Source: Kiritimatiellia bacterium
GTDB lineage: Bacteria > Verrucomicrobiota > Kiritimatiellia > RFP12 > UBA1067
Reading direction: 5' to 3'
Length of the DNA: 64,000 nucleotides
Assembly (NCBI GenBank): GCA_035449085.1
Contig: DAOTKE010000001.1
Location: 1,232 to 65,231 of the forward strand
Shown here: positions 18,208 to 62,300 of the stretch, piece after piece
How positions within the stretch are numbered: the first letter of the stretch is position 1
How the letters are laid out: every line of letters begins with the position of its first letter
Program-made: the position numbers and the translations under genes
Notes under the pieces: generated by a model
Databases searched by the model: none
The model's input: only the letters and a program-made list of their open reading frames with translations
Told to the model about the DNA's origin: nothing

Positions 18208-18359
18208 CGTTGCTTTTTAACGTGGAGACGGAGAGATGGAGAGACGCGGAGCAGGATGAAGGAGAGAACGCTGAACGTCGAACGCTGAACGCTGAACGTC
18301 GAACTCGGAAGTTGTGAGGGAGGGCGAGATCTCACACGAAGTGCACGAAGGCACGAAGG
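18204..18359. repeat. Copy 1 of a ~150-bp intergenic repeat element (contains a GAACGNN heptamer array 18266-18314 and CACGAAGG repeats)
   Basis: Aligns with 19175-19383. Shared TTTTTAACG..GAGACGG.GAG.., (GAACGYY)x5, GAACTCGGAAGTTGTGAGGG, CTCACACGAAG.GCACGAAGG.CACGAAGG. Starts exactly at the ftsW stop codon. Confidence 0.6.
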
Positions 18360-18480
18360 AAATAGCAGCGAGGGAAAAAACGAAGGTGCCCGATTCTCGC
18401 TTGACGAATGTGGTCACATGAGGCTACATTATGGCATGAAAAAGCAGAACCACAAGTATCCGCCGCAGAAAGCTGGAGCG

Positions 18481-18714
18481 ATGATTGCCGTTCGCGAGGC
18501 CAAGTCGCAGTTCTCGGCGTTGGTGGAGCGTGCGGCAGGGGGTGAGGAGATCATCATCACCTGGCATGGCCGTCCCAGGGCTCGGATGCTGCCTGTCGAT
18601 GAACCGCGAGGCAGGCTCCGTGTGGATCGGAGATGGCTCGAAAATATGCCAATAACCCATGCGACGAAAACGGTCGAAATTTTGGTGCGTGAGGATCGCG
18701 ATAATCGGGGGTAG
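18481..18714 (+). CDS. Type II antitoxin, Phd/YefM family
   Basis: MIAVREAKSQFSALVERAAGGEEIIITWHGRPRARMLP matches the Phd/YefM consensus. RBS GGAG 5 nt upstream. Stop 2 nt before the PIN toxin gene. Confidence 0.7.
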   Translation: MIAVREAKSQFSALVERAAGGEEIIITWHGRPRARMLPVDEPRGRLRVDRRWLENMPITHATKTVEILVREDRDNRG

Positions 18715-18716
18715 CG

Positions 18717-19178
18717 ATGTACGTGGACAGTGCCATCCTCGTCAAGTTGGTCGTACGGGAGCCCGACAGTCTTTTCTACGTCCAACTGCTGGAAAAATCT
18801 TCCGACCTGCGATCTTCGGAACTCGCCGTGACAGAGTGCCGCTCCGTTCTGGAGCGAAAGTGCCGCGAGGGAGAGCTGGGCGAAGCGACCCGAGATGGCG
18901 CTTGGCGTCGCCTCGGGACATATTGGCAGCGAGGCGGTGGGATTGTCCTTCACCCCGTTACACGTCTCGTCCTTGAAGAAGCTGGCGCGATGATCGCAGA
19001 ATGTATCGCCTCCGTGCCATTAAGGGCGCTCGATGCGATTCATCTCGCGACGTGTCGTCTTCACGGCGCGGTTCCGCTTGTCACCAGCGACCGGGTCATG
19101 CGGCAGGCGGCCCGTCATCTCGGCATTCCGTTGTCCGATCTTCCCGGCGCACCAGGGCTGCCCCTGATGACCCCGTAG
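18717..19178 (+). CDS. vapC: Type II toxin VapC (PIN-domain ribonuclease)
   Basis: 153 aa. PIN acidic residues (MYVDSAIL.., ..ELAVTE.., ..LDAIHLA.., ..TSD..). Immediately downstream of the antitoxin. Confidence 0.75.
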   Translation: MYVDSAILVKLVVREPDSLFYVQLLEKSSDLRSSELAVTECRSVLERKCREGELGEATRDGAWRRLGTYWQRGGGIVLHPVTRLVLEEAGAMIAECIASVPLRALDAIHLATCRLHGAVPLVTSDRVMRQAARHLGIPLSDLPGAPGLPLMTP

Positions 19179-19433
19179 TTTTTAACGCAGAGACGGGGAG
19201 ACGCGGAGAAGGAGGAAGGAAGAAGGAGGAAGGAGAGAACGCGGAATGTCGAACGTCGAACGCTGAACGCTGAACTCGGAAGTTGTGAGGGTGGGAGAGA
19301 CTGGGGGATTTAGTGCCTTGCGGCTCGACAAGCACAATAAAAAACAAGTTGTTTCTCACACGAAGCCACGAAGGGCACGAAGGTGGATGCCGTTTTAAAA
19401 GAAGCCTTTGTGGCCTTTGTGCCTTTGTGTGAG
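19175..19433 (+). repeat. Copy 2 of the intergenic repeat element, extended by a long strand-specific hairpin (19355-19433)
   Basis: Starts at the vapC stop. Carries a GA-rich heptamer run (GAGAAGG AGGAAGG AAGAAGG AGGAAGG) and a GAACGNN array (19237-19285). The 3' part folds into a 29-bp imperfect stem, CTCACACGAAGCCACGAAGGGCACGAAGG paired with CCTTTGTGGCCTTTGTGCCTTTGTGTGAG, with a 21-nt loop. The three G.U wobbles only form in the plus-strand transcript. Confidence 0.6.
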
Positions 19434-19462
19434 ATTGAATTGGGTTGCGGGCTACGCCCGCG

Positions 19463-19846
19463 TTAGTTTGACATTAGACATTTGTCGCTTTCAGCAGCCT
19501 TAACGCATGTGCGGCCGACCGATGCAAGGCTTTGTCGGTGTTCAGCCGAGCCGCCATCCTTTCGACCGCCTTTGCGACCGCAGGTACGGCCAGCCCGCCC
19601 GCCTGTTTTCCAATTGTCATAGACATTCACCGCATGCGGACCGTCTGCAAACGTCCCCTTCTCGGTCAGCAATGCACGCAAAGCCGTATACGGGACGTCC
19701 TTGAGCTCGCAACGCCTGTCGATCGAGACCTTCGCGGCCGCGGCGGCGGCAAAGCCGAGCATGCGCATGTGTGACTGCATCCTGAGTCCGCCCCCCGCAT
19801 CATGGGCAACGCCGTAGTGCTTGGCCGCGAGCAGGAGTTCCCGCAT
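19463..19846 (-). pseudogene. Short ORF, possible 5' remnant of a gene truncated by the repeat/TA insertion
   Basis: 127 aa. The first ~85 aa are protein-like (..LLAAKHYGVAHDAGGG..KVSIDRRCELKDVPYTALRALLTEKGTFADGPHAVNVYDNWKTG). The rest reads through the repeat hairpin as low-complexity nonsense. No homolog recognised with confidence. Confidence 0.25.
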
Positions 19847-20945
19847 ATTGCAGCCGTTGGGGCCGGGCGAGGTGGAGCCGCAGGGATGGCTGCGGGATCG
19901 TGCCGAGGCGATGGCGGCGGGTTATACCGGACACTCCCACGAGATGCATCAGGATTTTGCGCTGCCGTGGACGGCGACCTTCAAAGAGCCGCGCCCCGCG
20001 CCGCACTGCTGGCCCTACGAATGCGGCGCGTACTGGCTGGACGGTCTCGCCCGTCTCGCCTACCAGCTCGATGATCCCAAGCTGATCGAGCTCGTGAAGG
20101 CGCGCGTCGAGCCGGTGTTAAGCGATATCGACGAGAATACGCTGCTGTTCTACACCTGCATGAGTCGCACGAATGCCGTCGACCTTCAGAATTTTAAGAA
20201 GGAGCCGTTCTTCATCCGTGCCGCGGGACAGTACGCGCGCGGACTCTGGGCGTACTACCTTGCGACGAAGGACGAGCGGGGGCTGCGGGCGTTCCGTTAC
20301 GCATACAGTAGCGAGCCGGATTGGTTGAACGGCGTCCTCTCGATCAAGGGTGTGTCGTCGATCATGGACGCCTATGTTCAGGGCACCGCGTCCTGTAGCG
20401 GCGGCGCTCTCGCCGCCGCCCTCCAGGACTGGTCCCGCTTGGCGAAGATGTTCGACGCGCTCTTCGACCGAAAGCAGACGCGGCAGAAAGACTGGCCGTG
20501 GCACGACCACCTCGAACCGCCGAAGCCAGGTGACATGTCCTTTCTCGCGGGGAAGCAGGACGGCAATAACGGCTGGGGACGCTGGCATGGCGTGATGATG
20601 AGCGAGACGCTCGGCCCGCTCGTGATGGCGCTCAACCTTGAGGGCGCGGACGAGAACACGCATCGCGAAGGCGCCGCATGGCAGTTTGCGTATGATGCCT
20701 CCTCTTTCTCCGCCAAGGTGGTGCGCAAGCCGGTCAAGAGCGGTTTCGCCTGGGATGTGGACGCGCCGGTTGAAGTCGCGGCGGATCTGGTCGCCGCCAT
20801 GTGGGAGCACGATGCAAAAAATCCACGGCTTCCGAAATCGGTTACGCCTGGTGCGAAGCAGCAGGTCAAACTCGTCCCCTACGGCTGTTCGCGCATGCGC
20901 GTCTCTATGTTCCCATGTGCCGCACCGGAGCCGTCGGTGCACTAG
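19821..20945 (+). CDS. Six-hairpin (alpha/alpha)6 glycoside-hydrolase-like protein, possibly GH88/GH105 unsaturated glycuronyl hydrolase family; real start may be ATG 19911
   Basis: WPYECGAYWLDGLARLAYQLDDPKLIE resembles the W.YE.G....GL..LY..T.D..Y motif near the N-terminus of GH105/GH88 enzymes. ~345-375 aa fits that family. Uncertain. Confidence 0.4.
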   Translation: MAASRSSRILQPLGPGEVEPQGWLRDRAEAMAAGYTGHSHEMHQDFALPWTATFKEPRPAPHCWPYECGAYWLDGLARLAYQLDDPKLIELVKARVEPVLSDIDENTLLFYTCMSRTNAVDLQNFKKEPFFIRAAGQYARGLWAYYLATKDERGLRAFRYAYSSEPDWLNGVLSIKGVSSIMDAYVQGTASCSGGALAAALQDWSRLAKMFDALFDRKQTRQKDWPWHDHLEPPKPGDMSFLAGKQDGNNGWGRWHGVMMSETLGPLVMALNLEGADENTHREGAAWQFAYDASSFSAKVVRKPVKSGFAWDVDAPVEVAADLVAAMWEHDAKNPRLPKSVTPGAKQQVKLVPYGCSRMRVSMFPCAAPEPSVH

Positions 20946-20953
20946 CCCTTGGC

Positions 20954-22228
20954 CTATTCGTGCCGCAGGGCGGTGAGCGGATCGAGCTGGGCGGCTTTCC
21001 AGGCCGGATGCGTTCCGAAGGTGATGCCGGTGATCACGGAGACCGCCAGAGCGACGATCAGTGACTCGGAGGTCACCACCGCCTTGAGGCCGGCCTCGCC
21101 GCCCATGCGCGAGATCCACTCGGCGGTGGCAGCCGTCGCGATGCCCAGCCCCGCGCCGAGTCCGCCGCCGATCGAGGTCAGCAGGACCGATTCGGCGAGA
21201 AACTGCCACAGGATGTCGCGCTTACGCGCGCCTAGCGCCCGCCGCACGCCGATCTCGCGTGTCCGTTCGAAAATGTTGGCGAGCATGATGTTCATGATGC
21301 CGATGCCGCCCACCAGCAGGGAGATGGCGGCGATCGACGTCATCACCACGGTGAAGATGCGCTGCGTGCGGCGCGCGCTCTGCAAGAGTTCATAGGGGAC
21401 CTGCACCTCATAGTCAACCTGCGCGTGCGCCTCGCGCAGATAGGTGCGCAACCGGCCGGCCGTGCCGGGGATCGCGTCGATGTTTTTCGCCGCGAGATAG
21501 AGAAAGTCATAATCCACCTTTTCGGCCATGCCGCGACGCATCTGGACGGTGATGCCGCCCCACAGCGAAGTGGCCGTTTCGATCGGCATGCAGACGAGGT
21601 TGTTGAGCTCAAGCTGACCTCCGATACGGCCGCCTCCGGGGCTTTCCATCAAACCGACAACACGGAACGAAATGTTACCGATCACCACGGTCTGCCCGAG
21701 CGGGTCGCGGTGGCCGAAGAGCCGGCGCGCGGCCTTGACGCCGACCACGCAGACCGGATCCAGGATCTTGCCGTCGGTTGGCGCCAGAAAGCGGCTGCGA
21801 CGGTCCACCAGCCGACAGCGGGAGACTTCCAGAAACGCCGGGGTGGTGGCGACGGCCTTGATGTCGGTGGACATCTGTCCCAGAAAAATCTCGCGGCGCA
21901 CCTCCATGACCGGCACGATCAGCCGCACATTTTCAAAGACGCGCTCGATGTGTTCCACATCGCGTTGCGTGATGCCGTACCGCTGCGTGAAGGAGCGCGT
22001 GGTCTGCTGAGCGTTCCCTTCCGCGGGTTTGACCGAACGCAGGATGATGTTATCGACACCTTGTGATTCGATCTGACGCAAGGCCTCGCGCCGCCCGCCT
22101 TCACTGATGGCCAGCATGGCCACGACCGCCGCGATGCCCAGCACGATGCCGAGCGTGGCCAGCAGCGACCGCACCAGATGGCGCGTCAGGCTGGCGTAAA
22201 CGGTCCGGGCCATTTCCAGCGGATTCAT
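20954..22228 (-). CDS. ABC transporter permease, MacB/FtsX-like (4-TM with large periplasmic domain)
   Basis: 424 aa. N-terminal TM, ~250-aa periplasmic domain, C-terminal 3 TM FtsX-like module. Downstream of the ATPase 22225..22932. Confidence 0.8.
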   Translation of the reverse strand: MNPLEMARTVYASLTRHLVRSLLATLGIVLGIAAVVAMLAISEGGRREALRQIESQGVDNIILRSVKPAEGNAQQTTRSFTQRYGITQRDVEHIERVFENVRLIVPVMEVRREIFLGQMSTDIKAVATTPAFLEVSRCRLVDRRSRFLAPTDGKILDPVCVVGVKAARRLFGHRDPLGQTVVIGNISFRVVGLMESPGGGRIGGQLELNNLVCMPIETATSLWGGITVQMRRGMAEKVDYDFLYLAAKNIDAIPGTAGRLRTYLREAHAQVDYEVQVPYELLQSARRTQRIFTVVMTSIAAISLLVGGIGIMNIMLANIFERTREIGVRRALGARKRDILWQFLAESVLLTSIGGGLGAGLGIATAATAEWISRMGGEAGLKAVVTSESLIVALAVSVITGITFGTHPAWKAAQLDPLTALRHE

Positions 22229-22932
22229 GCTTCGCTGGCCCTCCCGTCATGGATCGTGACGGCCTGCGTGGCGTAGACGCGGTAGGCCGGATTATGCGTC
22301 ACCATGATGATGGTCTTGCCGCTGCGATGCAGCTCCTGGAAAATGCCCAGCACTTCCAGCCCGGTTTTCTCGTCGAGATTCCCGGTGGGCTCATCGGCCA
22401 GGATGACGGGCGGATCGTTGGCGAGCGCGCGCGCGATGGCGACGCGCTGGCACTGCCCGCCCGAGAGCTGGGTGGGGCGCGAGTGGTAACGGCCGCCCAG
22501 TCCGAAACGGTCTAACAGCTCTTTGGCCCGTTTACGCATGACCGAGCGCGGAATGCCCGCGTACTGCATCGGGACGCAGACGTTCTCCAGGATCGTCAGA
22601 TGAGACAGCAGATTGAAGGATTGAAAAACCATGCCGATCATCTTGCAGCGCACCGCCGACGTGGCGTCGTCGTTGAGTCTCGACACTTCACGGCCCTCCA
22701 ACAGGTAGGTTCCGGCGGTGGGGCGCATCAGCAGTCCGAAGAGATTCAGCAGGGTCGATTTGCCCGAGCCGGAAGGGCCCATCACGGTCAGGAATGCGCC
22801 GTGCCTGACGATGAGGTCAGTTGGACGCAAAGCATAGATCTGTGTGCCGCCGGCCTCGTACGTTTTGGCCAGCCCGCGCAGTTCGATCAACGGCGCTTGC
22901 GGTGGCGGCGAATGGGGGTGTGCGTCACTCAT
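22225..22932 (-). CDS. ABC transporter ATP-binding protein (MacB/LolD-like)
   Basis: Walker [10 protein letters not shown], signature [15 protein letters not shown], Walker [12 protein letters not shown]. Confidence 0.9.
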
Positions 22933-24773: not shown

Positions 24774-24782
24774 ATCCGTTTT

Positions 24783-26285: not shown

Positions 26286-26289
26286 GGCA

Positions 26290-33688: not shown

Positions 33689-35809
33689 ATGAGTGCACGC
33701 TGTTTGCCTGTTTGCCTGATCGGAATGACGGTGACCGCTTTCTCGCGCGACCTTGTGTGGCTCGGCACAGAGACCGACAACAACTGGGATCTCGTCACGG
33801 ACAACTGGTACGTGAAAGGCGACGAGACGAAAACGCGCGTCCGTTTTGAGTCAGGCGACAACGTCTTCTTTCTCGAAAACGAATGGGTGAATCCATCCAC
33901 GCAACTCGTCCGCACCAACACAACGACCTCGTGGACGAAGGAGTTCGACATCGGGGCGATTGTCATCAGCAACGAGACGTCGACCTTCACTTGGAAATGT
34001 AATGTGCTCGGCTATGTTGACTCTATTGTTTTTCAGGCGACGTCCATCGACAAATACGGCAACGGTGACTTGGCCACGCCGTTTTGTTTCGAGTGGAACT
34101 GTGACTTCAACATGCATGGCGGGCGGTTCATCTCCTCCAACGGATCGACCCATCCCAACGACTACCGTAACGACACGGGATCTATGAGAGTGCCGCGCAC
34201 AGTCAGATTTCTCACGGGGTCAACCTGGGACGTGATCAGCGGCACGGGGTTCGGCGGCGCCGGAAACGGAGCGCCGATCAACGTGATATTTTCCAACGCA
34301 ACGGTCAAGGTCTCACAGAATTCACAGTACGTGAATTTGCCGAAGGCGACTTTTTACGACACGGCTTTTAGCCTCGCCGGCAACACGGCTCCGGGGCGTG
34401 CGTTGCTCTTCACCGGTGACATTGTCGTTACCGGCACCAAGCCGACAACCATTCCATCCGGCCGCACATTGGTCCTCGGCCGGCGGGACAGGGTGCCCCT
34501 CACTGTGCGGGTCGACGACGTCACCGGTGATGACGACATCGACTTCACCGTGGCCGGTATACTCTGCAACATGAGCCTCACCGCCAATAACACCACTTAC
34601 ACGGGCTACGGAAACTTCAGGAAGACCGGCCCCGGCACGATGTCGATCACTTACAATAACAACACGTTCACCGGCAACGTCGAGATTGCCGAGGGCACGT
34701 TGCGGCTCGACAACGTTTCGCCGAGCATCGGGGTCGGATACAACTACCTGTGCGGTGCGCTTGGCGCCGTGGACGGCTGTGACCGGACGATCAGAGTCAG
34801 GAGTGGCGCCAAGCTGTGTAACGGGAACAATGGGGCCGCCTTCGGCCTCCTCAATACGCCGATGAGCATCAAAGTCGCGGTCGAAGACGGCAGTGCGCTC
34901 ATTCTGGGTGAGACGCAGAATAACTTTGGCCATCTGTCACTGGAAGGCGGCGATTTGCTCTATACGAACGGTTCCCAAATCACCTGGATCGAGTACGGGT
35001 TGATCTCCATCGGTAAGAAGCTGTCCTTCTCGGGGCCAAGGCCCTACGACCTGCAGATCCGCGGCACCCACAATGTCATGTACCTCGGCTTCACACTCGA
35101 GAGTCAGCTTGACACAGAGCCGATCAGTCCGAGTCAGCCGCACTTCACCAACCTTTGGAGCGTGGTGGAAATTGAGGTCGCCGACATCACGGGTGATTCC
35201 GGCATTGACGCCGCAATCGGCCTGCCGATGCGCGACATGGTCAACATGTGCTACCCAACCTACGGCGACTCGCCGAACAGCTATACATACATACCTGCGC
35301 CTTGGATCAACAGCTATTACCGCGACGGCATCCGCAAAACCGGCCCCGGCACGCTGCGGCTGAACGGCGCGAACACCTTCACGCACACGACGGAAGTCGC
35401 CGAGGGCACCTTGCTGGTGGACAGCACGGTTGCGCTGTCGAGCGGCGTGATTGTCGATCCCGGCGCTTTTCTGGGCGGGACGGGCACGGTTTCAGCGGTG
35501 ACGTTGAAGGACGGCGCCGGCATCGTCTGCACGGCAAACCGCGAACAGGAGCATGTCCTGAAGATGCCGTCACTGACGGTCGAGGGTGCGGTGACGGTAC
35601 GCGTGCTCAATCCCGGCGGTACCACAGCCAATGCGTTCAATCAGAACCTGCTACAGATCATCGGACGGCCCGTGTCCGTCGATTTACGGGATTGGCGTGT
35701 CTCGTTCGAGGGATCCGAGGAGACGGCGATGTTTGCCTTCAAGTACGACGCGACGACAGGCATCGTTTCGTCGCACTACGCGGGCGGCACGGCTATCTTC
35801 GTCCAGTGA
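33689..35809 (+). CDS. Giant PATR (autotransporter-associated beta strand repeat) secreted protein 2
   Basis: 706 aa. Signal peptide MSARCLPVCLIGMTVTAFS. Repeats ..RKTGPGTMSITYNNNTFTGNVEIAEGTLRLDN.. and ..RKTGPGTLRLNGANTFTHTTEVAEGTLLVDS.. Confidence 0.8.
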   Translation: MSARCLPVCLIGMTVTAFSRDLVWLGTETDNNWDLVTDNWYVKGDETKTRVRFESGDNVFFLENEWVNPSTQLVRTNTTTSWTKEFDIGAIVISNETSTFTWKCNVLGYVDSIVFQATSIDKYGNGDLATPFCFEWNCDFNMHGGRFISSNGSTHPNDYRNDTGSMRVPRTVRFLTGSTWDVISGTGFGGAGNGAPINVIFSNATVKVSQNSQYVNLPKATFYDTAFSLAGNTAPGRALLFTGDIVVTGTKPTTIPSGRTLVLGRRDRVPLTVRVDDVTGDDDIDFTVAGILCNMSLTANNTTYTGYGNFRKTGPGTMSITYNNNTFTGNVEIAEGTLRLDNVSPSIGVGYNYLCGALGAVDGCDRTIRVRSGAKLCNGNNGAAFGLLNTPMSIKVAVEDGSALILGETQNNFGHLSLEGGDLLYTNGSQITWIEYGLISIGKKLSFSGPRPYDLQIRGTHNVMYLGFTLESQLDTEPISPSQPHFTNLWSVVEIEVADITGDSGIDAAIGLPMRDMVNMCYPTYGDSPNSYTYIPAPWINSYYRDGIRKTGPGTLRLNGANTFTHTTEVAEGTLLVDSTVALSSGVIVDPGAFLGGTGTVSAVTLKDGAGIVCTANREQEHVLKMPSLTVEGAVTVRVLNPGGTTANAFNQNLLQIIGRPVSVDLRDWRVSFEGSEETAMFAFKYDATTGIVSSHYAGGTAIFVQ

Positions 35810-35914
35810 GACAGGGATGTGCGAAGTTCATGCGTTTCTGGAGAAAAGGGAGGCAGACGAGTCGGGCACGGGCAGCCTGCCCGCAACAACGTGTTGGGGA
35901 TTGGTTTCATCCCA

Positions 35915-35968
35915 ATCGCTATCGAAATCGGGATCGCTATCGAAATCGGGATCGGGATCGAAATCGAC
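35915..35968. repeat. (ATCGNN)9 hexamer tandem array; an inverted partner array (GATNNN)6 at 36142-36177
   Basis: ATCGCT ATCGAA ATCGGG repeated (18-bp unit x2 plus 3 more hexamers). The inverted copy flanks the other side of the 36039-36073 hairpin. Between convergent genes. Confidence 0.7.
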
Positions 35969-36038: not shown

Positions 36039-36073
36039 CGAACGACGGCGGCCCGACAGGCCGCCGTCGTTCG
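36039..36073. terminator. Perfect 15-bp-stem hairpin (CGAACGACGGCGGCC-CGACA-GGCCGCCGTCGTTCG), probable bidirectional terminator between convergent genes
   Basis: Exact inverted repeat with 5-nt loop. Located 230 nt after the + strand gene stop and 130 nt after the - strand hydA stop. No U-tract. Confidence 0.5.
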
Positions 36074-36202
36074 CATAGACCCACGTGACGTGGCGATCGC
36101 GGAGGGGGAGACGTCGAATCGCGCGTGTCCCCGTGTTGTCCGATCCCGATGGCGATAGCGATTCCGATAGCGATGCCCCAACTAACGCACGAACGCGCAC
36201 AC

Positions 36203-37957
36203 TTACTTCGCGTAGATCTTCTTCGCGTGGTAGTGGTTGTGCAGCAGGTGGTGCGCCTTCTCGCTGAGCGGTGCGCCCAGGTACTCCGCGTACAGCTTCT
36301 GAACCTGCGGGTTCAGGTGCGACATGCGGATCACGCACTTCTCGTCATCCGTGTAGATGCCGGCCGTGCGGGCCTTGCGCACCTCGTCCGTGGCGCCGGT
36401 CGGCTGTCCGCCGCCGCCGACACAACCGCCGCGGCAGGCCATGACTTCGATGAAGTCGTAGCGCGGCTTGCGGCCGGCCTTGCGGTCTTCGCGGATGGCG
36501 TCCAGAACCTGCTCGACGTTGCCCATCTGGTGGGCGACCGCGATCTTGACCGGCGTCCCCTTGATGTCGATCGTCGCTTCCTTCACGCCTTCCATGCCGC
36601 GGACGGCCTCAAAATTGATCGACGGCGGCTGGGCGTCGCCGGTGATCAGGCAATAAGCGGTACGCAGGGCGGCTTCCATCACGCCGCCGGTGACGCCGAA
36701 GATCGTGCCAGCGCCGGTGTAATCGCCCAAGATCGAGTCGGCCTCTTCCTTCTCCAGCTTGGAGAAATCGATGCCGGCGCTCTTGAACATACGGGCCAGT
36801 TCGCGTGTGGTGAGCACCACGTCGACGTCCTGATGTCCGCTGGCGAACATGTTCTCGCTGCGCGAAATCTCGTACTTCTTGGCCGTGCACGGCATAATCG
36901 AGACCATGAAGATGCGGGCGGGGTCGATGCCCATTTTTTCCGCATAGTAAGTCTTGGCCAGCACACCCAGCATCTGCTGCGGCGACTTGGCGGTCGAGAA
37001 GTTGTCCATGAAATCCTGGGCATACTTCTCCATCCAGTCGGTCCACGCCGGGCAGCACGAGGTGATCAACGGCAACTTGCCGCCGCCGGTGAAGCGCTTG
37101 ATGAACTCGGAGCCTTCCTCCATGATGGTCACGTCGGCACTGTAGTTGGTGTCGAAGACCGCCTTGAAGCCGAGGCGCCGCAGGCCAGCATAGGTCTCGC
37201 CGGTCATCAGCGTGCCGGGCGGCAGGCCGAACGCCTCGCCGATCGCGACGCGCACGGCCGGGGCAATCTGCACCACGCAGTATTTGCTCTCGTCGCGCAA
37301 GGCGTTCCACACTTCACGGGTCTGGTCACGCTCATAGATCGCGCCGACCGGGCAGTGAGCCGAGCACTGGCCGCACTTGATGCAGGGCGACTCGTTGAGC
37401 GTGACATCGGCGGCGGGTGCCATGCGGGTTTTTTCGCCGCGGCCGATGAACTCCAGCGCCCAGACGTTCTGCATCTCTTGGCAGACGATGGCGCAGCGGC
37501 CGCACTTCACGCACTTCTCGGGATTCAGCACGATGGAGGGCGTGGAGGTGTCGACCGGGATATTCGGCACTTCGGCCGGGAAGGGATTTTCGCGGATGCC
37601 GAAATCCGCCGCGAGTTTCTGCAGCTCGCAGATCCCGCTACGCGGACACTGGAGACAGTCGTTCGGGTGGTTGGCCAGAATCAGCTCCAGAACCGTACGG
37701 CGCACACTCACGATGTCCGAGTCGTGCGTGGTGATCTTCATGCCCGGCGCGACTTCAGTACAACAGGCCCGGAGCAGTTTGGGAGACCCAGAGTTGCGGA
37801 CCACACAGATGCCGCACGCCGCCCACGGCTTGAGGTCAGGGTGGTGGCAAAGCGTGGGGATTTTGACATGCACCGCCTTGGCGGCATCCAGGATCGTGGT
37901 GCCGGCCGGGACCTCGACCGGGATCCCGTTGATTTCAAGTTGAACAAGGTTAGACAT
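36203..37957 (-). CDS. hydA: [FeFe]-hydrogenase catalytic subunit (HydA/HndD-like, group A3 multimeric)
   Basis: Start ATG 37957 (MSNLVQLEINGIPV). N-terminal 2Fe-2S domain, two 4Fe-4S ferredoxin motifs (CVKCGRCAIVC, CIKCGQCSAHCP). H-cluster motifs TSCCPAW, MPCTAKK, MACRGGCVGGGGQP. Confidence 0.9.
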   Translation of the reverse strand: MSNLVQLEINGIPVEVPAGTTILDAAKAVHVKIPTLCHHPDLKPWAACGICVVRNSGSPKLLRACCTEVAPGMKITTHDSDIVSVRRTVLELILANHPNDCLQCPRSGICELQKLAADFGIRENPFPAEVPNIPVDTSTPSIVLNPEKCVKCGRCAIVCQEMQNVWALEFIGRGEKTRMAPAADVTLNESPCIKCGQCSAHCPVGAIYERDQTREVWNALRDESKYCVVQIAPAVRVAIGEAFGLPPGTLMTGETYAGLRRLGFKAVFDTNYSADVTIMEEGSEFIKRFTGGGKLPLITSCCPAWTDWMEKYAQDFMDNFSTAKSPQQMLGVLAKTYYAEKMGIDPARIFMVSIMPCTAKKYEISRSENMFASGHQDVDVVLTTRELARMFKSAGIDFSKLEKEEADSILGDYTGAGTIFGVTGGVMEAALRTAYCLITGDAQPPSINFEAVRGMEGVKEATIDIKGTPVKIAVAHQMGNVEQVLDAIREDRKAGRKPRYDFIEVMACRGGCVGGGGQPTGATDEVRKARTAGIYTDDEKCVIRMSHLNPQVQKLYAEYLGAPLSEKAHHLLHNHYHAKKIYAK

Positions 37958-37977
37958 AGTGAAAAGCCCTTTCAGAA

Positions 37978-39765
37978 TTACGCGCGGTTCACGGCGTGGA
38001 ACTTGCAGACCTCGTAGCACTGGCCGCACTTGATACACTTCTCGCCGTCGATCGTGTGCGGTTGCTTGCGTTCACCGGCGATGGCATTGACCGGACAGAC
38101 ACGGGCGCAGGCTGTACAGCCGACGCACTTGTTCTTGTCGATTGTGTAACGCAGCAGGTTCTTGCACTTGCCGGCGCGGCACTTCTTCCCATCGATGTGC
38201 TCCTTATACTCGTCCATGAAGTAGCGGAGGCTCGACTGGACGGGGTTGGAGGCGGTCTGTCCGAGGCCGCACAACGAGGCGCGCGACATCGCCTCACTGA
38301 TCTCGCGCATGTTCTCGATGTCCTCGTGGGTGCCCTTGCCGTCGCAGATCTTGTCGAGGTAGTTGAGCAGCTTGCGTCCGCCGATACGGCACGGCGCGCA
38401 TTTGCCGCAGGACTCGTCGACGGTGAAGTCGAGGTAGAACTTCGCGATGTTCGGGATGCAGTCATCCTCGTCCATCACGATCAGGCCGCCCGAGCCCATG
38501 ATCGAGCCGATCTTCGCGAGGTTCTCGTAGTCGATCGGCGTGTCCAGGAACTGCGGCGGGATCATGCCGCCGGAAGGTCCGCCGGTCTGCGCCGCCTTGA
38601 AGGCCTTTCCGCCGCGGATGCCGCCGCCGATGTCGAAAATGATCTCGCGCAGAGTGGTGCCCATGGGGACTTCGATCAGGCCGGAATTGTTGATCTTGCC
38701 GGTGAGGGCGAAGACCTTGGTGCCCTTCGAGGTCGCGGTGCCGATCTTGCTGAACCAGAGTCCGCCTTTCAGGATGATGACCGGGATGTTCGCCAGCGTC
38801 TCGACGTTGTTGATGACGGTGGGGCGGTCCCAGAGGCCCTTGACCGCGGGGAAGGGCGGGCGGGGACGCGGCATGCCGCGCATGCCTTCGATCGAGGCGA
38901 GCAGCGCCGTCTCTTCACCGCAGACAAAGGCGCCGGCGCCGAGGCGGATCTCGATGTCAAAGGAGAATCCGCTGCCGAGGATGTCTTCGCCGAGCAGACC
39001 GTATTCGCGGGCCTGGGCGATTGCGTTTTCCAGGCGCTGGATCGCGAGCGGGTACTCCGCGCGGATGTAGATGAAGCCCTTGCTGGCACCGATGGCATAG
39101 CCGGCGATGGCCATCGCCTCAAGCACCGAGTGGGGGTCGCCCTCAAGCGTCGAGCGATCCATGTAGGCGCCGGGATCCCCTTCGTCGGCGTTGCAGACCA
39201 TGTACTTCTGACCGGCGGGCTGCAGGGCCGCAAACGACCACTTTTTGCCGGTGGGGAAGCCCGCGCCGCCGCGGCCGCGCAGGCCGGACTTCGAGACTTC
39301 GTCGATCACGTCCTGCGGCTTCATGTCAAAAAGCACCTTTTCCAGTGCCTTGTAGCCGTCACGGGCGATGTATTCGTCGATCTTGTCGGGGTCGATCACG
39401 CCGCAGTTGCGCAGCACGATGCGGAACTGCTTCTGGTAGAAGTCGATGCCCTCGATGCCGACGTTGATCTTGCTCTGGTTCTTGTCGTAGAGCAGGCGGG
39501 AGACCACGCGGCCCTTGATGATGTGCTCTTTGACGATGACTTCAGCGTCCTCGGGTGTAACCTCGACGTAGAAGGTGTCCTGATGCAGGATTTTGACGAT
39601 CGGCCCTTTTTCGCAGAAGCCCAGGCAGCCGGTGCGCACGACCTGCACGTCGTTGACCAGACCGTTCTCTGCGACCGCCTTTTTCAGCGCGTCGAACAGC
39701 GCGATGCCGCGGTTGGACTCGCAGGCCGTTCCGCCGCATACCAAGATGTACTGTTTGTAAGCCAT
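37978..39765 (-). CDS. NADH-binding flavoprotein subunit of bifurcating hydrogenase (NuoF-like; HndC/HydB)
   Basis: Start ATG 39765 (MAYKQYILVCGGTACES, thioredoxin-like 2Fe-2S). GRGGAGFPTG FMN/NADH site. SLBB domain. C-terminal CGKCAPCR plus two 4Fe-4S motifs. Confidence 0.9.
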   Translation of the reverse strand: MAYKQYILVCGGTACESNRGIALFDALKKAVAENGLVNDVQVVRTGCLGFCEKGPIVKILHQDTFYVEVTPEDAEVIVKEHIIKGRVVSRLLYDKNQSKINVGIEGIDFYQKQFRIVLRNCGVIDPDKIDEYIARDGYKALEKVLFDMKPQDVIDEVSKSGLRGRGGAGFPTGKKWSFAALQPAGQKYMVCNADEGDPGAYMDRSTLEGDPHSVLEAMAIAGYAIGASKGFIYIRAEYPLAIQRLENAIAQAREYGLLGEDILGSGFSFDIEIRLGAGAFVCGEETALLASIEGMRGMPRPRPPFPAVKGLWDRPTVINNVETLANIPVIILKGGLWFSKIGTATSKGTKVFALTGKINNSGLIEVPMGTTLREIIFDIGGGIRGGKAFKAAQTGGPSGGMIPPQFLDTPIDYENLAKIGSIMGSGGLIVMDEDDCIPNIAKFYLDFTVDESCGKCAPCRIGGRKLLNYLDKICDGKGTHEDIENMREISEAMSRASLCGLGQTASNPVQSSLRYFMDEYKEHIDGKKCRAGKCKNLLRYTIDKNKCVGCTACARVCPVNAIAGERKQPHTIDGEKCIKCGQCYEVCKFHAVNRA

Positions 39766-52813: not shown

Positions 52814-52814
52814 G

Positions 52815-54488
52815 ATGACGCATACCCTGTCACGCGCGTTGGGCTGGTCCGTCGCCGCTGCGATCATTGCCGGTGCCGCTGTGCTGCGACTGCCGCGCCT
52901 CGACCAGCGTCCAATGCACGGTGACGAGGCCAACCAGGCGGTAAGGACGGGGCTGCTGCTGGACCAGGGCTTTTACCACTACGATCCTGCCGATCATCAC
53001 GGTCCAACGCTCTATTTCGCGGCCTGGCCGTTCTGCCGCGTGACGGCGCGAACTTTCGCTGAAACAACCGAATGGAACTACCGTCTGGTGCCGGTGACGT
53101 TCAGCCTGCTCACACTGCTGATGATGCTGGGGCTGGGTTCACGTGAGAGCGGCCACGGTCTGTTCGCCAGCCGGGCAGGAATCTACAGCGCTGCGCTCCT
53201 CACCGCCGCATCACCGGCGATGACCTACTATAGTCGCTTCTTCATTCAGGAATCGATGCTGCTCACCTTCCTGACCGGCATGCTGCTGTGCGCCATGCGC
53301 TACGCCGCCGCGCACAGCAGCCTAGAGGCCAGAGGTCAGAGGTCAGAGGTCAGCAACCAGCAACCAGCAACCAGGAACCAGCAACCTGTAACCCTCCTCT
53401 GGGCTGCTGGCTTCGGCGCGTTTGCGGGGCTGGCCGCCGCGACCAAAGAGACGGCGGTGCTTTCGTTCGCCGCGGCGGCGGTGGCGCTGGTCGTGGCTTG
53501 CGGCTTCGGTCGTTTGTGGCGCATGTGGCGTACCCGCGACGCGCTGGTGGCGGTCGGTGCGGCCGCGTTCGTGGCCGTGCTCTTCTACTCCTCGTTCTTC
53601 ACTTACTGGTGCGGCGTTTACGACGCGCTCTTTTCAACTTTCCAGACCTATCACACGCGGGCCACGGCGGTGCCTGAACATCAGCATCCCTGGGATTTTT
53701 ATCTCAAGATCATCTTCTGGTTCAAGTACGGGCGCGGCCCCGTGTGGAGCGAAGCCGGCTTGCTGCTGCCGGCCGCGCTGGCGGTCGGTCTTGCCTTCCT
53801 GCCGTTCCGGCGACCAAGCGCGGTGGACGCGGGAACCCGGACGCGCCGGCGCTGGTTGCGTTTTCTGTCGGTCTATACGCTGGCCCTGACGGCGCTCTAC
53901 AGTGCGATCCCCTACAAGACACCATGGTGTGCGCTCTCGTTCCTGCACGGTTTCATCCTGCTCGCCGGAGCGGGTGTCGACGCATGCTGGATGGCCTGCT
54001 CGCGGAGGACAGACACCGCAGGATCTGAATCGGTCTTCGCGCCGTTGCGCCTGTGCGGGAAGCTGGCTGTCGTGCTGCTCGTCGCCGCACTGGTCTGGCG
54101 GCATGCGGCGCAGGCGCGCCGCGCCTGTTTCAAAATGCCGGCCGATCCGCGCAACCCATACGTCTACGCGCATACCGGCAGCGACGCGATGAACCTGGTG
54201 GCCGAGATCGAACGTGCCGCGCGGCACGCAGAGGGAACCGACACCCTGATCGCGCTGGCGGTGCCCACGCCCGACACCTGGCCGCTGCCGTGGTATCTGC
54301 GCAAATACCGCAACGTAGGATATTGGACTCGCGTCGTCGATATCCCGGCCGATCTGCAGCCGACCGTGGTGGTTGCCGCCGCCGATCAGGGTGATGCGGC
54401 TGACGAGCGTTTCGGGCGCGGCAAGCGTGCTTCCTTTTTCGGTATCCGCCCCGGTGTGCTTCTGAACCTGTTTGTGCCTGAAAAGTGA
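52815..54488 (+). CDS. GT-C fold glycosyltransferase, PMT_2/ArnT-like (TIGR03663 family)
   Basis: 557 aa, multi-TM. N-terminal loop MHGDEANQA (DE motif of PMT/ArnT family). Starts 1 nt after the DUF2723 stop. Confidence 0.65.
   Translation: MTHTLSRALGWSVAAAIIAGAAVLRLPRLDQRPMHGDEANQAVRTGLLLDQGFYHYDPADHHGPTLYFAAWPFCRVTARTFAETTEWNYRLVPVTFSLLTLLMMLGLGSRESGHGLFASRAGIYSAALLTAASPAMTYYSRFFIQESMLLTFLTGMLLCAMRYAAAHSSLEARGQRSEVSNQQPATRNQQPVTLLWAAGFGAFAGLAAATKETAVLSFAAAAVALVVACGFGRLWRMWRTRDALVAVGAAAFVAVLFYSSFFTYWCGVYDALFSTFQTYHTRATAVPEHQHPWDFYLKIIFWFKYGRGPVWSEAGLLLPAALAVGLAFLPFRRPSAVDAGTRTRRRWLRFLSVYTLALTALYSAIPYKTPWCALSFLHGFILLAGAGVDACWMACSRRTDTAGSESVFAPLRLCGKLAVVLLVAALVWRHAAQARRACFKMPADPRNPYVYAHTGSDAMNLVAEIERAARHAEGTDTLIALAVPTPDTWPLPWYLRKYRNVGYWTRVVDIPADLQPTVVVAAADQGDAADERFGRGKRASFFGIRPGVLLNLFVPEK
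53324..53393 (+). repeat. In-frame heptanucleotide tandem array (AGAGGYC)x4-(AGCAACC)x3-AGGAACC-AGCAACC-TGTAACC inside the TIGR03663 gene
   Basis: 10 consecutive 7-nt units. Encodes the low-complexity loop EARGQRSEVSNQQPATRNQQPVT. Confidence 0.75.
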
Positions 54489-55803: not shown

Positions 55804-56010
55804 GAAGGAGGCGACGCTGCCCGTATTCAATCTCACACACGAAGGACACCACGTAAGTGGTTGCCGGGTTCCGTGGCGTCGTCAGCGCGGTCCGTCAAAT
55901 AGAAAAGACACCGTAGGTTTTTTTGAGGCGGTCAGATTTCCAGTGCCCGAAATTAAGTTGCGCGAAAGCCGGAATTCGGTATTCTATCTTCTGTGGAAGG
56001 GATTATTGCT

Positions 56011-56445
56011 ATGAAATCTATAGTTGCGCCAATCGCTGTTCTGGGAACTGTTGCTGTTCTGGCTGATCCTGTAGGCGGGGCCGGCGAGTGGGAGTTCACC
56101 GGTGAAGCCCCCGACCAGCAGCTTACAGTGTTGTCCGGCGAGTGTACGATCGATGAAGCCATTGATGGCTGCAGCCAGGTGTACATCCTGGAAGGTGCGA
56201 AACTGACGCTGAATGTCGACGAACCATTTATCTCCCAGCCGGAACTGCACAACTTCGGCACCTTGGAGTTGAACGGATACTCCATTTCGGTCAGGAGGTT
56301 CGACAACACGATCGAGAGTAGCGCCATCCGGGGGAAGTTGCCGATGGTGGTCAATTCCTCCGAGGAACCTGTTTCCTTGCGGGTGACGGGCGGGGCAAGC
56401 TCTTGCTATTATACGGATCCATTCGCGAGAACCCTGGCAGGATAG
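56011..56445 (+). CDS. N-terminal fragment (signal peptide plus ~110 aa) of giant PATR/discoidin surface protein 3; frame lost between 56322 and 56445
   Basis: ATG 56011 with RBS GGAAGG. Signal peptide MKSIVAPIAVLGTVAVLA. PATR-like strands. Reading frame of 56403..59228 is open from 56322. Confidence 0.55.
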   Translation: MKSIVAPIAVLGTVAVLADPVGGAGEWEFTGEAPDQQLTVLSGECTIDEAIDGCSQVYILEGAKLTLNVDEPFISQPELHNFGTLELNGYSISVRRFDNTIESSAIRGKLPMVVNSSEEPVSLRVTGGASSCYYTDPFARTLAG

Positions 56446-59228: not shown

Positions 59229-59336
59229 AGCTTGACCCCTGCCGATCCCTCTCCCCAAAGAGTCCCCACTTGCGGCTCGATCCCTTTCGATCTGATTCGG
59301 CCTTCGACGTTCTGCGCCGAGATCAGGGATTGATCG

Positions 59337-59365
59337 TTCACTCCGGGGGGCTGATCTGCTACAAT
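59337..59365 (+). promoter_or_regulatory. Candidate ileS promoter (TTCACT-17-TACAAT)
   Basis: -10 TACAAT at 59360-59365 is 29 nt before ATG 59394. Confidence 0.3.
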
Positions 59366-59393
59366 CGCGGGCATTTACGGAGAAAGGCGCATC

Positions 59394-62300
59394 ATGTTTC
59401 AACCGGTTTCCAACAAGTCAGATTTTCCCGCGATGGAGCGCGAGATCCTCGCGTTTTGGGAGGCGAACGGCACATTTAAGAAGAGTCTTGCCAAGAACCG
59501 CGGGAAGGACGATTACGTGTTTTATGACGGGCCGCCCTTCGCGACTGGCCTGCCGCATTATGGGCATCTGCTGGCGGGCACCATCAAAGATATCGTGCCG
59601 CGCTACCAGACGATGCGCGGCCACCATGTGGAGCGGCGCTTCGGCTGGGATTGCCACGGGCTGCCGATCGAGGCGCTGGCCCAGGAGGCGCTGGGGGTCA
59701 GCGGTGCGCATGAGATCCGCCAACTCGGCGTGGCCAAGTTTAACGAGCAGTGCCGCTCGATGGTGCTCACCTACGTCAACGAGTGGCGCAAGACAGTCAC
59801 GCGCATGGGACGCTGGGTGGATTTCGATAACGACTACAAGACCATGGACCCCTCGTTCATGGAGAGCATCTGGTGGGTCTTCAAACAACTGTGGGATCAA
59901 GGCCGCGTCTACAAGTCCTACCGCATCATGCCCTACAGTTGGAAGCTCAGCACCCCGCTCAGCAATTTCGAGGCGGGCAGCAACTACAAGGATGTGCAGG
60001 ATCCCGCGATCACGGTCCGCGCCAAGGTGCTGACCGGCGCCGATCCGGCCTGGGGCGAAACCAGTCTGCTGATCTGGACCACCACGCCGTGGACATTGCC
60101 CGAAAACCTGGCGATCTGCGCCGGCCCGGACATCGATTACGTGGCGGTGCGCGATGTCGCCGGCGGCATGTGTTTTGTGATGGCCGAGGCGCGCCTCTCC
60201 GCCTACTACAAGAAGGCGGAGGAGTATCAGGTGCTGGCGCGGCTCAAGGGGAGCGGCCTGAAGGGCTGGACCTACGAGCCGCTCTTCCCGTATTTTTCGG
60301 AATGTGCGTCCGAAGGGGCCTTCCGTGTGCTCAATGACGGCTTTGTCAGCACCGAGGACGGCACCGGCTTGGTCCACATTGCGCCGGCCTACGGCGAGGA
60401 CGACTTCCGCGTCTGCCAAGAGGCGGGCATCACGGTCATCGCCGACCCGCTCGATGCCTCCTGTAATTTTACCGACAAGTTGCCTGAATATCAGGGCCGC
60501 TTCTGCAAGGATTGCGACAAGGATCTGATCAAACGCCTGAAACAAGAAGGCAAGCTGATTCATCAGACCACCATCGTGCACAGCTATCCGTTCTGCGACC
60601 GCACGGATACACCGCTGATCTATCGCGCGATCGAAGCGTGGTACGTCCGTGTCGAGGATCTGCACGAGCGGCTCACGCGCAACAACAGCACGGTGCACTG
60701 GATGCCGGATTATGTCGGCGACAAGCGGTTCGGCAATTGGCTGAACGAGGCGCGCGACTGGAACATCAGCCGCAACCGCTTCTGGGGGTCGTGTATCCCG
60801 GTCTGGATCAACGAGCAGGATCCGTCAGACATGATCTGCGTGGGTTCTGTCGCCGAGCTGGAGGCGCTGTCCGGGCAGCGCGTGACTGATCTGCATAAGC
60901 ACTTCGTGGACGAGGTGGTGATCCGTCGCGACGGCAAAACCTACCGCCGCACACCTGAGGTGCTGGACTGCTGGTTCGAGTCGGGATCCATGCCGTACGC
61001 GCAGCAGCACTACCCCTTTGGGAAGTTAGGAGTGAGGAGTGAGGAGTCAGGAGTTAAGGAGGAGGGAGAAGGGAAGCAGCAGGAGATCTCCAAGTTTTTC
61101 CCGGCGGACTTCATTGCGGAGGGGTTGGATCAGACGCGTGGCTGGTTCTACACGCTGATGGTGCTGGGCACCTGTCTCTTCGACCGCTCGCCGTTCAAGA
61201 ATGTGGTGGTGAATGGTCTGGTGCTGGCCGAGGACGGCAAGAAGATGTCCAAGCGCCTGAAGAACTATCCGGATCCCACGCATATTCTCGATGTTTACGG
61301 AGCGGACGCGCTACGCCTCTACATGATCTATTCGCCGGTGGTGCGCGCCGAAAACCTGCGCTTTTCCGAAAACGGCGTGAAGCAGATTCTGCGCGACCTG
61401 CTGATCCCCTGGTGGAACGCCTACAGCTTTTTTGTGACCTACGCCAATGTGGACGGCTTCCACGACGAGGAGCTGGTGACGCCGTCGAGCCCGAATGTGC
61501 TCGACCGCTGGATCGTCAGCTCGCTGGAGACGCTGGTGCAGGACGTGACCGACGCGATGGACAACTATGACCTGCAGCGCTCGGTGCGTCCCTTTGTGAG
61601 TTTTGTGGAGGATCTGACCAACTGGTACATCCGCCGCAGCCGCCGGCGTTTCTGGAAATCGCAGAATGACGATGACAAGACGCACGCCTACCGCACGCTG
61701 CGGTATGTGCTGGTGCAGCTCTGCAAAGTGGCCGCGCCCTTCACGCCGTTCATCAGCGAGGCTATCTACCGTAACCTCAAAGGCGCGTCGATGCCGGAAT
61801 CGGTGCATCTGTGCGACTTCCCGACCGCCAACGCGTCGGCGCGTGACGCGGCGCTCGAGCGCAGCATGGCGCTGGTGCAGACCGTGGTGAAGCTCGGTCG
61901 CCAGCTCCGCACAGAGAACGACCTCAAGGTGCGTCAGCCGCTGGCGGTGCTCCACATCGTGTCGGCCAATCCCGAGATCCGCACGATGCTGGAAGGCTTC
62001 GAGGATCTGATCACGGACGAGCTCAACATCAAGACGGTCGCGTTCGGCAGCGATGAAACAGCCATGGCCGACGTGTCGGTCAAAGCCGATTTCCGCAAGC
62101 TCGGCCCGAAGTTCGGCCCGGCCATGAAGACGGTGGCGGCGGAAATCGCGCGCCTCTCATCGGCGCGGGCGGCGGCTCTGGCCGCGAATCGTCCGGTGGC
62201 CATCGAGGTGGACGGCAAGCCCGTCGAACTGAGCGCCGACGATGTGGTCGTGCAGCGCACGCCCAAGGCCGGCATGGTGGTGGCGTCCGAGGGCGATGTG

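Follow-up and report, generated by a model that had tools for sequence, protein, structure and literature searches.

Short head-to-tail arrays of seven-nucleotide units, usually in ~4–5 copies, are found between genes and, in frame, inside two protein genes of a 64,000-nt stretch of a Kiritimatiellia bacterium genome (contig DAOTKE010000001.1, positions 1,232 to 65,231 of the forward strand; hereafter the window). The coding arrays lie in the isoleucyl-tRNA synthetase gene ileS and in the gene of a TIGR03663/Agl23-family membrane protein, while the intergenic arrays belong to a composite element that flanks a Phd/PIN toxin-antitoxin (TA) pair. Period 7 is the dominant tandem-repeat period in this lineage, and the arrays are the most indel-prone sites between near-identical strains. 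Such indels add or remove whole units between direct repeats, the pattern predicted by strand slippage or unequal exchange. The arrays are probably the product of slippage and copying of heptanucleotide simple-sequence repeats, filtered within genes by the reading frame, by stop codons and by the tolerance of protein loops. Those in coding sequence look like tolerated mutational by-products, with no sign of service to the proteins or of switching.

Period-7 arrays in the window and in related loci

The window was scanned with Tandem Repeats Finder (TRF), by direct sequence reading and with a stricter purpose-made detector. TRF reports 7-nt units in 4.0–5.6 copies at six places (Table 1), and the stricter detector finds three period-7 arrays, compared with none in 30 dinucleotide-preserving shuffles. 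An initial annotation of the window had named 7-nt arrays at these places, and TRF, direct reading and the empty shuffles all bear it out. The sole other period-7 row, a weak one inside ftsW (17772–17793, 73% match), is probably due to chance. As had also been stated, both coding arrays keep the frame within intact open reading frames (ORFs).

Statistics for the lineage are based on 1.13 Mb of sequence, comprising 80 related metagenome loci (cited here by number, such as L008) and the window, with this genome represented by its 64 kb. Merged TRF arrays are most numerous at period 7 (63), followed by periods 12 (56), 15 (47), 8 (16) and 6 (2). In a count of arrays with at least four copies, period 7 accounts for 78, compared with 38 for period 6, 12 for period 8 and 6 for period 9. 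Three shuffles of the whole set yield no period-7 TRF row, as opposed to the 82 observed, and the enrichment that had been put forward as a check on the arrays is thereby evident across the lineage. The period-7 copy-number histogram plateaus at four units (44 arrays of three copies, 42 of four and 17 of five), whereas other periods drop steeply. Period-7 arrays are present in all bins of IleS identity from 57 to 100%, at 0.03–0.08 per kb.

The nearest IleS relatives of the window are metagenome-assembled genomes (MAGs) of Kiritimatiellia throughout, and its IleS protein is identical to GenBank entries from Kiritimatiellia bacterium. Exactly this protein is encoded by 20 metagenome contigs, mostly from anaerobic-digester samples. 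Digester metagenomes with this strain include JGI 3300010347, 3300009704 and 3300009714 and ENA ERZ27257460, and the IleS protein of its MAG is recorded as HRR33371.1 / HRU69484.1. Six contigs of different samples were compared and are 99.95–100% identical to the window over 9–15 kb without a gap; the arrays are therefore real and stable within the strain. The derivation of the window from a metagenome assembly is the sole point in favour of chance matches or assembly artefacts. This explanation has a negligible probability and is already refuted by the same arrays in independent assemblies (JGI, ENA, Logan), by their absence from shuffled sequence and by the intact ORFs.

Arrays as loop insertions in IleS

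The ileS product contains the Pfam domains tRNA-synt_1, Anticodon_1 and DUF5915, and its best solved match is a cytoplasmic IleRS (9w01, E = 0). The spacer between its HYPF and FPADF motifs, which holds the array, comprises 26 residues in the window and 13–40 in relatives with at least 80% IleS identity, compared with 9 residues in most of the best 120 IleS homologs in which both motifs were located. Human cytoplasmic IleRS aligns with a 17-residue gap opposite the insert. The ortholog alignment, with its ancestral 9-residue spacer, hence agrees with the earlier description of a lineage-specific segment between HYPFG and FPADFI. An AGGGAGA unit had been read into the downstream part of the insert, which is degenerate instead. 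At this downstream site (61057–61076), sister strains carry 42 nt more, laid out as 21-nt super-repeats.

The insert peptides of related IleS proteins are translated heptamers: RSEELGV is derived from (AGGAGTK)3, RSEVRGQ from (AGAGGTC)3 and TSDLRPP from (GACCTCY)3, while QKSEVG and RSEIGN come from related units. This origin is confirmed in the DNA of the 80 related loci. In a distance tree of IleS, sequences with the insert are scattered among those without it, and certain near-identical sequences can be told apart at the insert site alone. Across the 80 loci, arrays occur at four loops of the enzyme (residues ~215–218, 540–558, 692–697 and 922–924 in window numbering), with units that differ by lineage, and their density is 0.083 per kb in IleS versus 0.048 per kb in flanking DNA. 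It had been considered unusual that an essential aminoacyl-tRNA synthetase should tolerate such arrays. With heptamer arrays at four IleS loops of different relatives, this tolerance is not exceptional in the lineage.

An AlphaFold2 model of IleS has a mean pLDDT of 71.8, with a poorly modelled catalytic core. The regions around the hot spots at residues ~215, 692 and 922 are well modelled and place these sites between secondary-structure elements. The main insert (residues 541–564) is modelled as coil, which is weak evidence in a poorly modelled region, and the low confidence there is not specific because the catalytic core as a whole is poorly modelled.

The ancestral DNA of the main loop is exemplified by AAG GGA GGA GAT (L089) or AAG GGC GAA GAG (L014). 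Ancestral codons for K-G-G/K-G-E-E, AAGGGAGGAG, can thus account for the purine-rich units of ileS as a local seed. On its own, the resemblance of these units to the intergenic GAAGGAG array, from which a common generating mechanism had been proposed, is therefore weak evidence for that mechanism.

Two further observations concern arrays in IleS. In L060, whose IleS is 63% identical to that of the window, AGAGGTC units are found inside IleS, and GGTCAGA, ACCGACC and CCCCCCT arrays occur at 12038–12131 of that locus, also within IleS. The cluster members P0126 and P0128 belong to one MAG whose ileS is divided between two contigs, both with ends that overlap the heptamer insert, an indication that the array may interrupt assembly or vary within that sample.

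Arrays in the TIGR03663/Agl23 gene

The membrane protein scores 154.4 bits against the NCBIfam model TIGR03663, for which the cut-off is 126.25. It had been called a glycosyltransferase; the NCBIfam name is 'flippase activity-associated protein Agl23', and the glycosyltransferase role is unproven. Its two abutting arrays encode a hydrophilic insert (residues 168–192, mean Kyte-Doolittle −1.47) between hydrophobic segments at 142–166 and 191–235. The loop comprises ~14–19 residues in most of 120 homologs, compared with 35 in the window and 23–63 in the close clade, in agreement with the earlier view of this segment as a lineage-specific insertion. Taken with the IleS hot spots between secondary-structure elements, this insert upholds the proposal that the coding arrays encode low-complexity loops.

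The same loop holds different units in different relatives. Arrays homologous to AGCAACC consist of diverged units in L009 (a perfect CCCGAAA array of 5.4 copies) and L017 (GCAACCC-like units), and the AGAGGTC array is missing from both orthologs. In L091 and L092, (AGAGGTC)4–7 is followed by AGCAATC and TGTAACC arrays, and L013 carries CCGACCT, which belongs to the reverse-complement family of the AGAGGTC of the window. No array is found at the site in L012, L014, L022 and L030. The loop has thus been occupied in both orientations, with AGAGGTC in the window clade and GACCTCY (encoding TSDLRPP) in many relatives at 64–70% identity.

Length polymorphism and the reading frame

Strains that are 98.9–99.7% identical differ at the coding arrays by 21 or 42 nt, equivalent to three or six units. 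L091 and L092 are 98.9% identical over 13.2 kb, and apart from two 21-nt gaps they show no real indel; one gap lies in the TIGR03663 array (4 vs 7 AGAGGTC units), the other in the ileS array. Between L090 and L091, whose IleS sequences are 99.5% identical outside the insert, 42 nt flanked by the direct repeat GGAGGAGGGAG have been deleted. Insert lengths in the IleS of sister strains are 40, 33 and 26 residues, and the TIGR03663 loop lengths form the series 35/42/49/56/63 and 23/37/51, with steps of 7 or 14 residues.

Of 22 coding arrays, 17 have units without a stop triplet in any phase. The remaining five would contain six in-frame stops, each of which is abolished by a substitution, and mismatches to the unit consensus are ~10-fold enriched at these positions (Fisher p = 2.5e-4). 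The ileS array of the window, for example, has TGAGGAG units, but TTA or TCA in the two units with T at codon position 1.

The arrays had further been proposed as slipped-strand hotspots at which the gain or loss of one unit would shift the frame. The changes of 21 and 42 nt among near-identical strains support the hotspots themselves; an on/off switch is another matter. In consensus assemblies no out-of-frame allele is found among the 28 IleS cluster members that cover the site, all compared contigs and 120 TIGR03663 homologs, so nothing supports phase variation. It is very improbable that the coding arrays are contingency loci switched on and off by single-unit changes in the manner of neuO. 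A single 7-nt unit does shift the frame, neuO proves that a coding heptamer array can switch (PMC13001214), and the TIGR03663 protein belongs to the cell envelope, a typical target of phase variation. Apart from the uniformly in-frame alleles, however, ileS is essential, the arrays are short (4–7 units) and mostly imperfect compared with the 3–53 perfect units of neuO, and the six contigs from different samples that match the window contain no indel.

A composite intergenic element around a TA pair

The two GAACGNN arrays that had been listed separately are both present in the window, yet they are not independent: they are parts of two copies of one composite element, 88% identical over 80 nt, that flank the Phd/PIN pair. 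Each copy comprises, in order, TTTTTAACG directly after a stop codon, GAGACGSR 8-mers, GAAGGAG heptamers, six GAACGNN units, a core and CACGAAGG 8-mers. The element consequently holds two kinds of 8-mer array, GAGACGSR and CACGAAGG, beside its heptamers, and its GAAGGAG module is expanded in the right copy. The unique core GAACTCGGAAGTTGTGAGGG has two exact copies in the window. In an exact 20-mer search of 185,579 species genomes, from which the source genome is evidently absent, this core gave only a chance match inside an Actinomycetes gene. An Rfam search of the intergenic element gave no match at curated thresholds, and a sub-threshold match to a plant microRNA was taken as chance.

In the right copy, the CACGAAGG array and an inverted CCTTTGTG array fold together into a long, strongly palindromic hairpin. 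Its predicted stability is −46.1 kcal/mol (z = −8.4) as RNA of the + strand, compared with −32 kcal/mol for the other strand, the difference being due to a G.U pair in each unit. No structure is predicted for the heptamer part of the element (z = +1.8). L097 carries, at another locus, both the right arm of the hairpin and the GC hairpin that follows it. Assemblies of the same strain break off at 19338, 19363 and 19431, in three independent cases within the right-hand element or its hairpin, which suggests a multi-copy or hard-to-assemble repeat.

In the sister species represented by L096, the core genes share 84% DNA identity with those of the window, while the TA cassette with its array element shares 97.8%; the cassette was therefore exchanged recently. 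L096 lacks the left-hand array block of ~100 nt as well as the 8-mer hairpin, and its right-hand GAACGNN array has four units, compared with six in the window. This comparison shows that intergenic arrays are not bound to three-unit steps and that an entire array block can be copied to a nearby site. In a third species (L097) the TA pair is missing from this locus, where other heptamers (GGTTTCA and CAAATCC) follow ftsW, and a GAACKNN array is present elsewhere. GAACKNN arrays are found in L008, L017, L091, L092, L096 and L097.

Between ftsW and a MacB/FtsX-type gene, the region from 18208 to 20946 forms a variable island. Its Phd/PIN cassette and a fragment of a FAD_oxidored gene (19463–19846, minus strand) are 95–99.5% identical to L096, while L097 has a Calx-beta gene in place of the island. 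L096 contains an additional 1.1-kb IS200-like insertion (Y1_Tnp) at window position 19613/19614. Its proximity to the element made this Y1_Tnp a candidate transposase, which was rejected: it belongs to a separate 1.1-kb insertion sequence (IS) that is missing from the window (no copy by tblastn). The window itself contains no transposase gene, of the Y1 type or any other, and most of the related loci likewise lack a Y1 transposase.

Table 1. Repeat arrays and associated features of the window. TRF, unit, positions and copy number reported by Tandem Repeats Finder.
Feature	Positions	Strand	TRF	Remarks
Start of left element copy	18215–18248	+		TTTTTAACG just after the ftsW stop, then 8-mers GAGACGGA/GAGATGGA/GAGACGCG
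GAACGNN array, left copy	18266–18307	+	GAACGCT/GAACGTC, 18266–18304, 4.7–5.6 copies	6 units: GAACGCT GAACGTC GAACGCT GAACGCT GAACGTC GAACTCG
Non-repetitive core GAACTCGGAAGTTGTGAGGGAGGGCGAGA	18301–18329	+		Common to both copies
8-mer array CACGAAGN x3	18335–18359	+		One arm only
TA promoter-like site	18401–18430			3′ of the CACGAAGN array
Phd-family antitoxin gene	18418–18714	+		Between the element copies
PIN-domain toxin gene	18717–19178	+		Between the element copies
Start of right element copy	19181–19209	+		TTTTTAACG just after the PIN stop, then 8-mers ACGCRGAG x3
GAAGGAG heptamer array	19206–19240	+	GAAGGAG, 19208–19235, 4.0 copies	~4–5 units
GAACGNN array, right copy	19237–19278	+	GAACGYY, 19244–19275	6 units
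Hairpin of inverted 8-mer arrays	19354–19440	+		CACGAAGG x3 / CCTTTGTG x3
TIGR03663/Agl23-family membrane protein gene	52815–54488	+		557 aa; hosts two arrays
AGAGGCC/AGAGGTC array	53324–53351	+	AGAGGTC, 53324–53353, 4.3 copies, 95% match	4 units, in frame; encodes EARGQRSEV
AGCAACC array	53352–53393	+	CAGCAAC, 53351–53393, 5–6 copies	6 units, in frame; SNQQPATRNQQPV
ileS, eukaryote-like type	59394–62612	+		1072 aa; array host
AGGAGTN array	61024–61056	+	AGGAGTN, 61024–61054, 4.4 copies; degenerate GGAGGAG/GGAGAAG units onward to ~61076	In frame; TTAGGAG TGAGGAG TGAGGAG TCAGGAG TTA
Degenerate GGAGGAG/GGAGAAG/GGAAG units	61057–61076	+		

Other repeats in the window and near ileS

Arrays with units of other lengths were also observed. 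An imperfect hexamer array (GCTCCG/CCTGCT, ~7 copies, 16747–16788) is located just upstream of ftsW, where ORFs 16009–17043 (+) and 16159–17253 (−) overlap. Between the convergent genes 33689–35809 (+) and 36203–38038 (−), an ATCGNN hexamer array with an 18-nt super-period (35909–35966) and its reverse complement (36140–36177) stand on either side of a GC-rich hairpin (~36040–36075), an architecture of inverted tandem arrays that is shared with the 8-mer hairpin at 19354–19440. Directly 3′ of the ileS stop, CAGGATTA/CAGGATTTA is repeated three times (62614–62638) and overlaps the end of a convergent DUF2851 gene. In a sister species the same ileS-DUF2851 spacer holds an array of GTCTCCGC 8-mers (L091, 13442–13475), the reverse complement of the GAGACGSG units of the window. 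GGAATAWT 8-mers with the inverted partner TTCCAATA occur upstream and downstream of ileS in L088 (1450–1607 and 4845–4883) and likewise in L089, forming another inverted pair of tandem arrays around a gene.

Origin of the arrays

If the arrays arise by slippage and copying, they would start from short local proto-repeats, the seed in the IleS loop being the GGAGGAG of ancestral Lys-Gly-Gly/Glu codons, and template switching or ectopic conversion could then place copies at other sites, in either orientation. In intergenic DNA any number of units would survive. Within genes, selection would retain arrays in loops that tolerate extra residues, would keep them rid of in-frame stops, and would restrict length changes to three units (21 nt, 7 residues). 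The expected outcome would be hydrophilic loop insertions with a 7-residue period, such as those between HYPF and FPADF in IleS and between the two hydrophobic segments in TIGR03663/Agl23.

Several observations weigh against this explanation. Slippage alone gives no answer as to why the period is 7 nt. It also leaves unexplained the plateau in copy number at four units in place of a steady fall, and the IleS inserts of L011 and L013, in which a forward array is followed by a loop and a near-reverse-complement array. When exact canonical units were compared (single-linkage clustering at ≤1 mismatch being too permissive to define families), the same unit was shared by 7 of 72 within-locus pairs and 15 of 1881 between-locus pairs, a 12-fold difference (p = 8e-6). 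AGAGGTC/GACCTCY and GAACGYY recur at unrelated loci, in both orientations, in relatives down to 63% IleS identity; L060, for instance, also has a 17-unit intergenic AGAGGTC/AGAGGCC array with a 21-nt super-period (8672–8790). L088 and L089 (99.5% identical), which had been considered as a view of array birth, are uninformative on origin and were set aside: a 24-nt segment is replaced by one of 39 nt, the alleles are barely alike and the single-nucleotide polymorphisms lie in recombination-like tracts, such that the difference looks like allele exchange by recombination.

The sharing of units within loci, the recurring heptamers and the inverted pairs suggest either selection for particular units or their copying from site to site, for which a mobile agent, ectopic conversion or template switching could be responsible. 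Repeated targeting of the same loops and the recurrence of heptamers in distant relatives, in both orientations, leave a mobile-element or functional origin at low probability. It is rather unlikely that very small mobile palindromes similar to Rickettsia palindromic elements (RPE), repetitive extragenic palindromes and bacterial interspersed mosaic elements (REP/BIME) or the small dispersed repeats of cyanobacteria make up the arrays or disperse them. Such elements would enter protein loops, in frame, as well as intergenic DNA, and slippage would only remodel them afterwards. They would fit the ~12-fold excess of shared units within loci, the same heptamers in distant relatives in both orientations and in the same TIGR03663 loop, the array-loop-array arrangement in L011 and L013, and the inverted array pairs found in L042, L056, L059 and L091. 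The recurrence of the hairpin arm and GC hairpin in L097, the three assemblies that end within the hairpin element and the TA cassette that is far more similar between species than the core genes point in the same direction. The coding inserts, on the other hand, share no conserved consensus over their full length and are accompanied by neither terminal inverted repeats nor target-site duplications; they vary continuously in length and units, even among close relatives. As to palindromic structure, the coding arrays of the window have none, and the IleS inserts of L011 and L013 join a forward array to a near-reverse-complement one. The IleS loop has a local seed, the window encodes no transposase and the Y1_Tnp of L096 belongs to its separate IS, and the 20-mer core gave only the chance match among the species genomes.

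Selection for cis-acting elements, such as binding sites for a protein or RNA that recognises 7-nt units, or 3′-untranslated region, terminator or RNA-stability elements, with the coding copies as spill-over, is quite unlikely. A limited set of heptamers does recur in distant relatives, and the four-unit plateau resembles that of Xanthomonas GGGAATC (PMC4692102) and Geobacter GGACCGG (PMC2700814). Arrays begin right after the stops of ftsW, the PIN gene and ileS, and the 8-mer hairpin, with its systematic G.U pairs, is far more stable on the transcribed + strand. However, orthologous sites in close relatives have other units or no array, the left intergenic block is missing from the sister species, no structure is predicted for the heptamers of the element, and neither an Rfam match at curated thresholds nor a candidate binding factor was found.

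A more speculative and still unlikely possibility is that a dedicated, lineage-wide process introduces heptamers from a small conserved repertoire (AGAGGTC/GACCTCY, GAACGYY, GGAGTNA and others) into DNA. A templated repair pathway might be responsible, or an enzyme that works on hairpin or single-stranded DNA; either would deposit ~four units at a time, in intergenic DNA as well as in protein loops and in either orientation.

Significance

Both the heptamer excess and the multiple-of-three rule are already known, and the arrays described here belong to a known repeat class and are not a new system. To our knowledge, the heptanucleotide excess of bacteria has been recognised since 2007, and that of cyanobacteria since 1990, with no accepted cause. 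What the present arrays add to the reports cited here is that the same loops of an essential enzyme have been remodelled repeatedly, that the polymorphism falls cleanly into 21-nt steps, and that units recur in distant relatives and in either orientation. The lineage is a natural experiment in which one repeat class can be followed both in unconstrained DNA and in a highly conserved essential enzyme; in IleS, selection exposes the mutation process as 21-nt steps, and the same few loops are remodelled many times over. As lineage-specific low-complexity loops, the arrays can mislead alignments, gene callers and assemblers, and they provide fine-scale strain markers for Kiritimatiellia in anaerobic digesters. 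A dedicated heptamer-writing process, if true, would represent a new class of very small mobile repeat and a mechanistic answer to the 7-nt preference of bacterial tandem repeats.

Comparison with known heptanucleotide repeats

Heptamer repeats of cyanobacteria are known as short tandemly repeated repetitive (STRR) sequences. They have been reported for Calothrix (PMC4692102). As summarised in later papers (PMC4679880; PMC4692102), a heptanucleotide excess in many bacterial genomes was published in 2007 (Mrazek et al.), with polymerase slippage proposed as the origin and 7 nt proposed to reflect the contact of the polymerase with DNA. The arrays of the window resemble the known heptanucleotide long simple-sequence repeats (LSSR) of prokaryotes (PMC4679880) in the excess of period 7 over its neighbours, in their high-GC, non-pathogenic host, in the presence of several unit families and in their location mostly near gene ends. 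They differ in occurring in a new phylum (Kiritimatiellota), in the many in-frame arrays within conserved genes and the repeated hits to the same loops, and in that different units often abut and inverted pairs also occur. A full-text literature search returned no report of tandem repeats in Kiritimatiellia; both terms were met only in a general review of the Baltic Sea, each once.

The G-rich heptamers of the GGGAATC type in Xanthomonas and Nostoc prefer four units and lie near stop or start codons (PMC4692102), as do the arrays described here. Those arrays form G-quadruplexes and are scarcer in coding regions, whereas the present units have no G-tracts and are not depleted from IleS. In Geobacter metallireducens, 49 elements of four GGACCGG units are found within and between genes (PMC2700814), and the blocks of ~four heptamers in genic and intergenic positions are similar. 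Geobacter, however, has one dominant unit in a conserved element that BLAST matches, while many unit families, no full-length element and strain-level 21-nt polymorphism are found here. The TAACTGA direct repeats of Beggiatoaceae consist of a single unit upstream of start codons and have been proposed to regulate translation (PMC4679880). They likewise occur in short sets (2–6), mostly in intergenic DNA near genes, with genic placement limited by stop codons in the unit; here, by contrast, the units are many and often lie after stop codons or inside genes.

Compared with REP/BIME and their REP-associated tyrosine transposases (RAYT), the hairpin at 19354–19440 is palindromic and part of it recurs in L097, while the window encodes no Y1 transposase. 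RPEs are conserved palindromic elements of ~100–150 bp, and in 2000 Ogata et al. reportedly described their in-frame insertion into protein genes of Rickettsia. Selfish-looking repeats tolerated in frame, in surface loops of housekeeping proteins, are common to both cases; the inserts described here, unlike RPEs, are 12–100 nt of tandem heptamers without a conserved consensus. The neuO gene of E. coli K1 also has a heptamer array (AAGACTC) in its coding sequence, and its protein is made only when the number of units is a multiple of three (PMC13001214), three units being equivalent to a 7-residue repeat in both systems. Its array is long, perfect and 5′-terminal, switches between ON and OFF and is OFF in most genomes, whereas the arrays of this Kiritimatiellia lineage are short, internal, present in an essential gene and always in frame.

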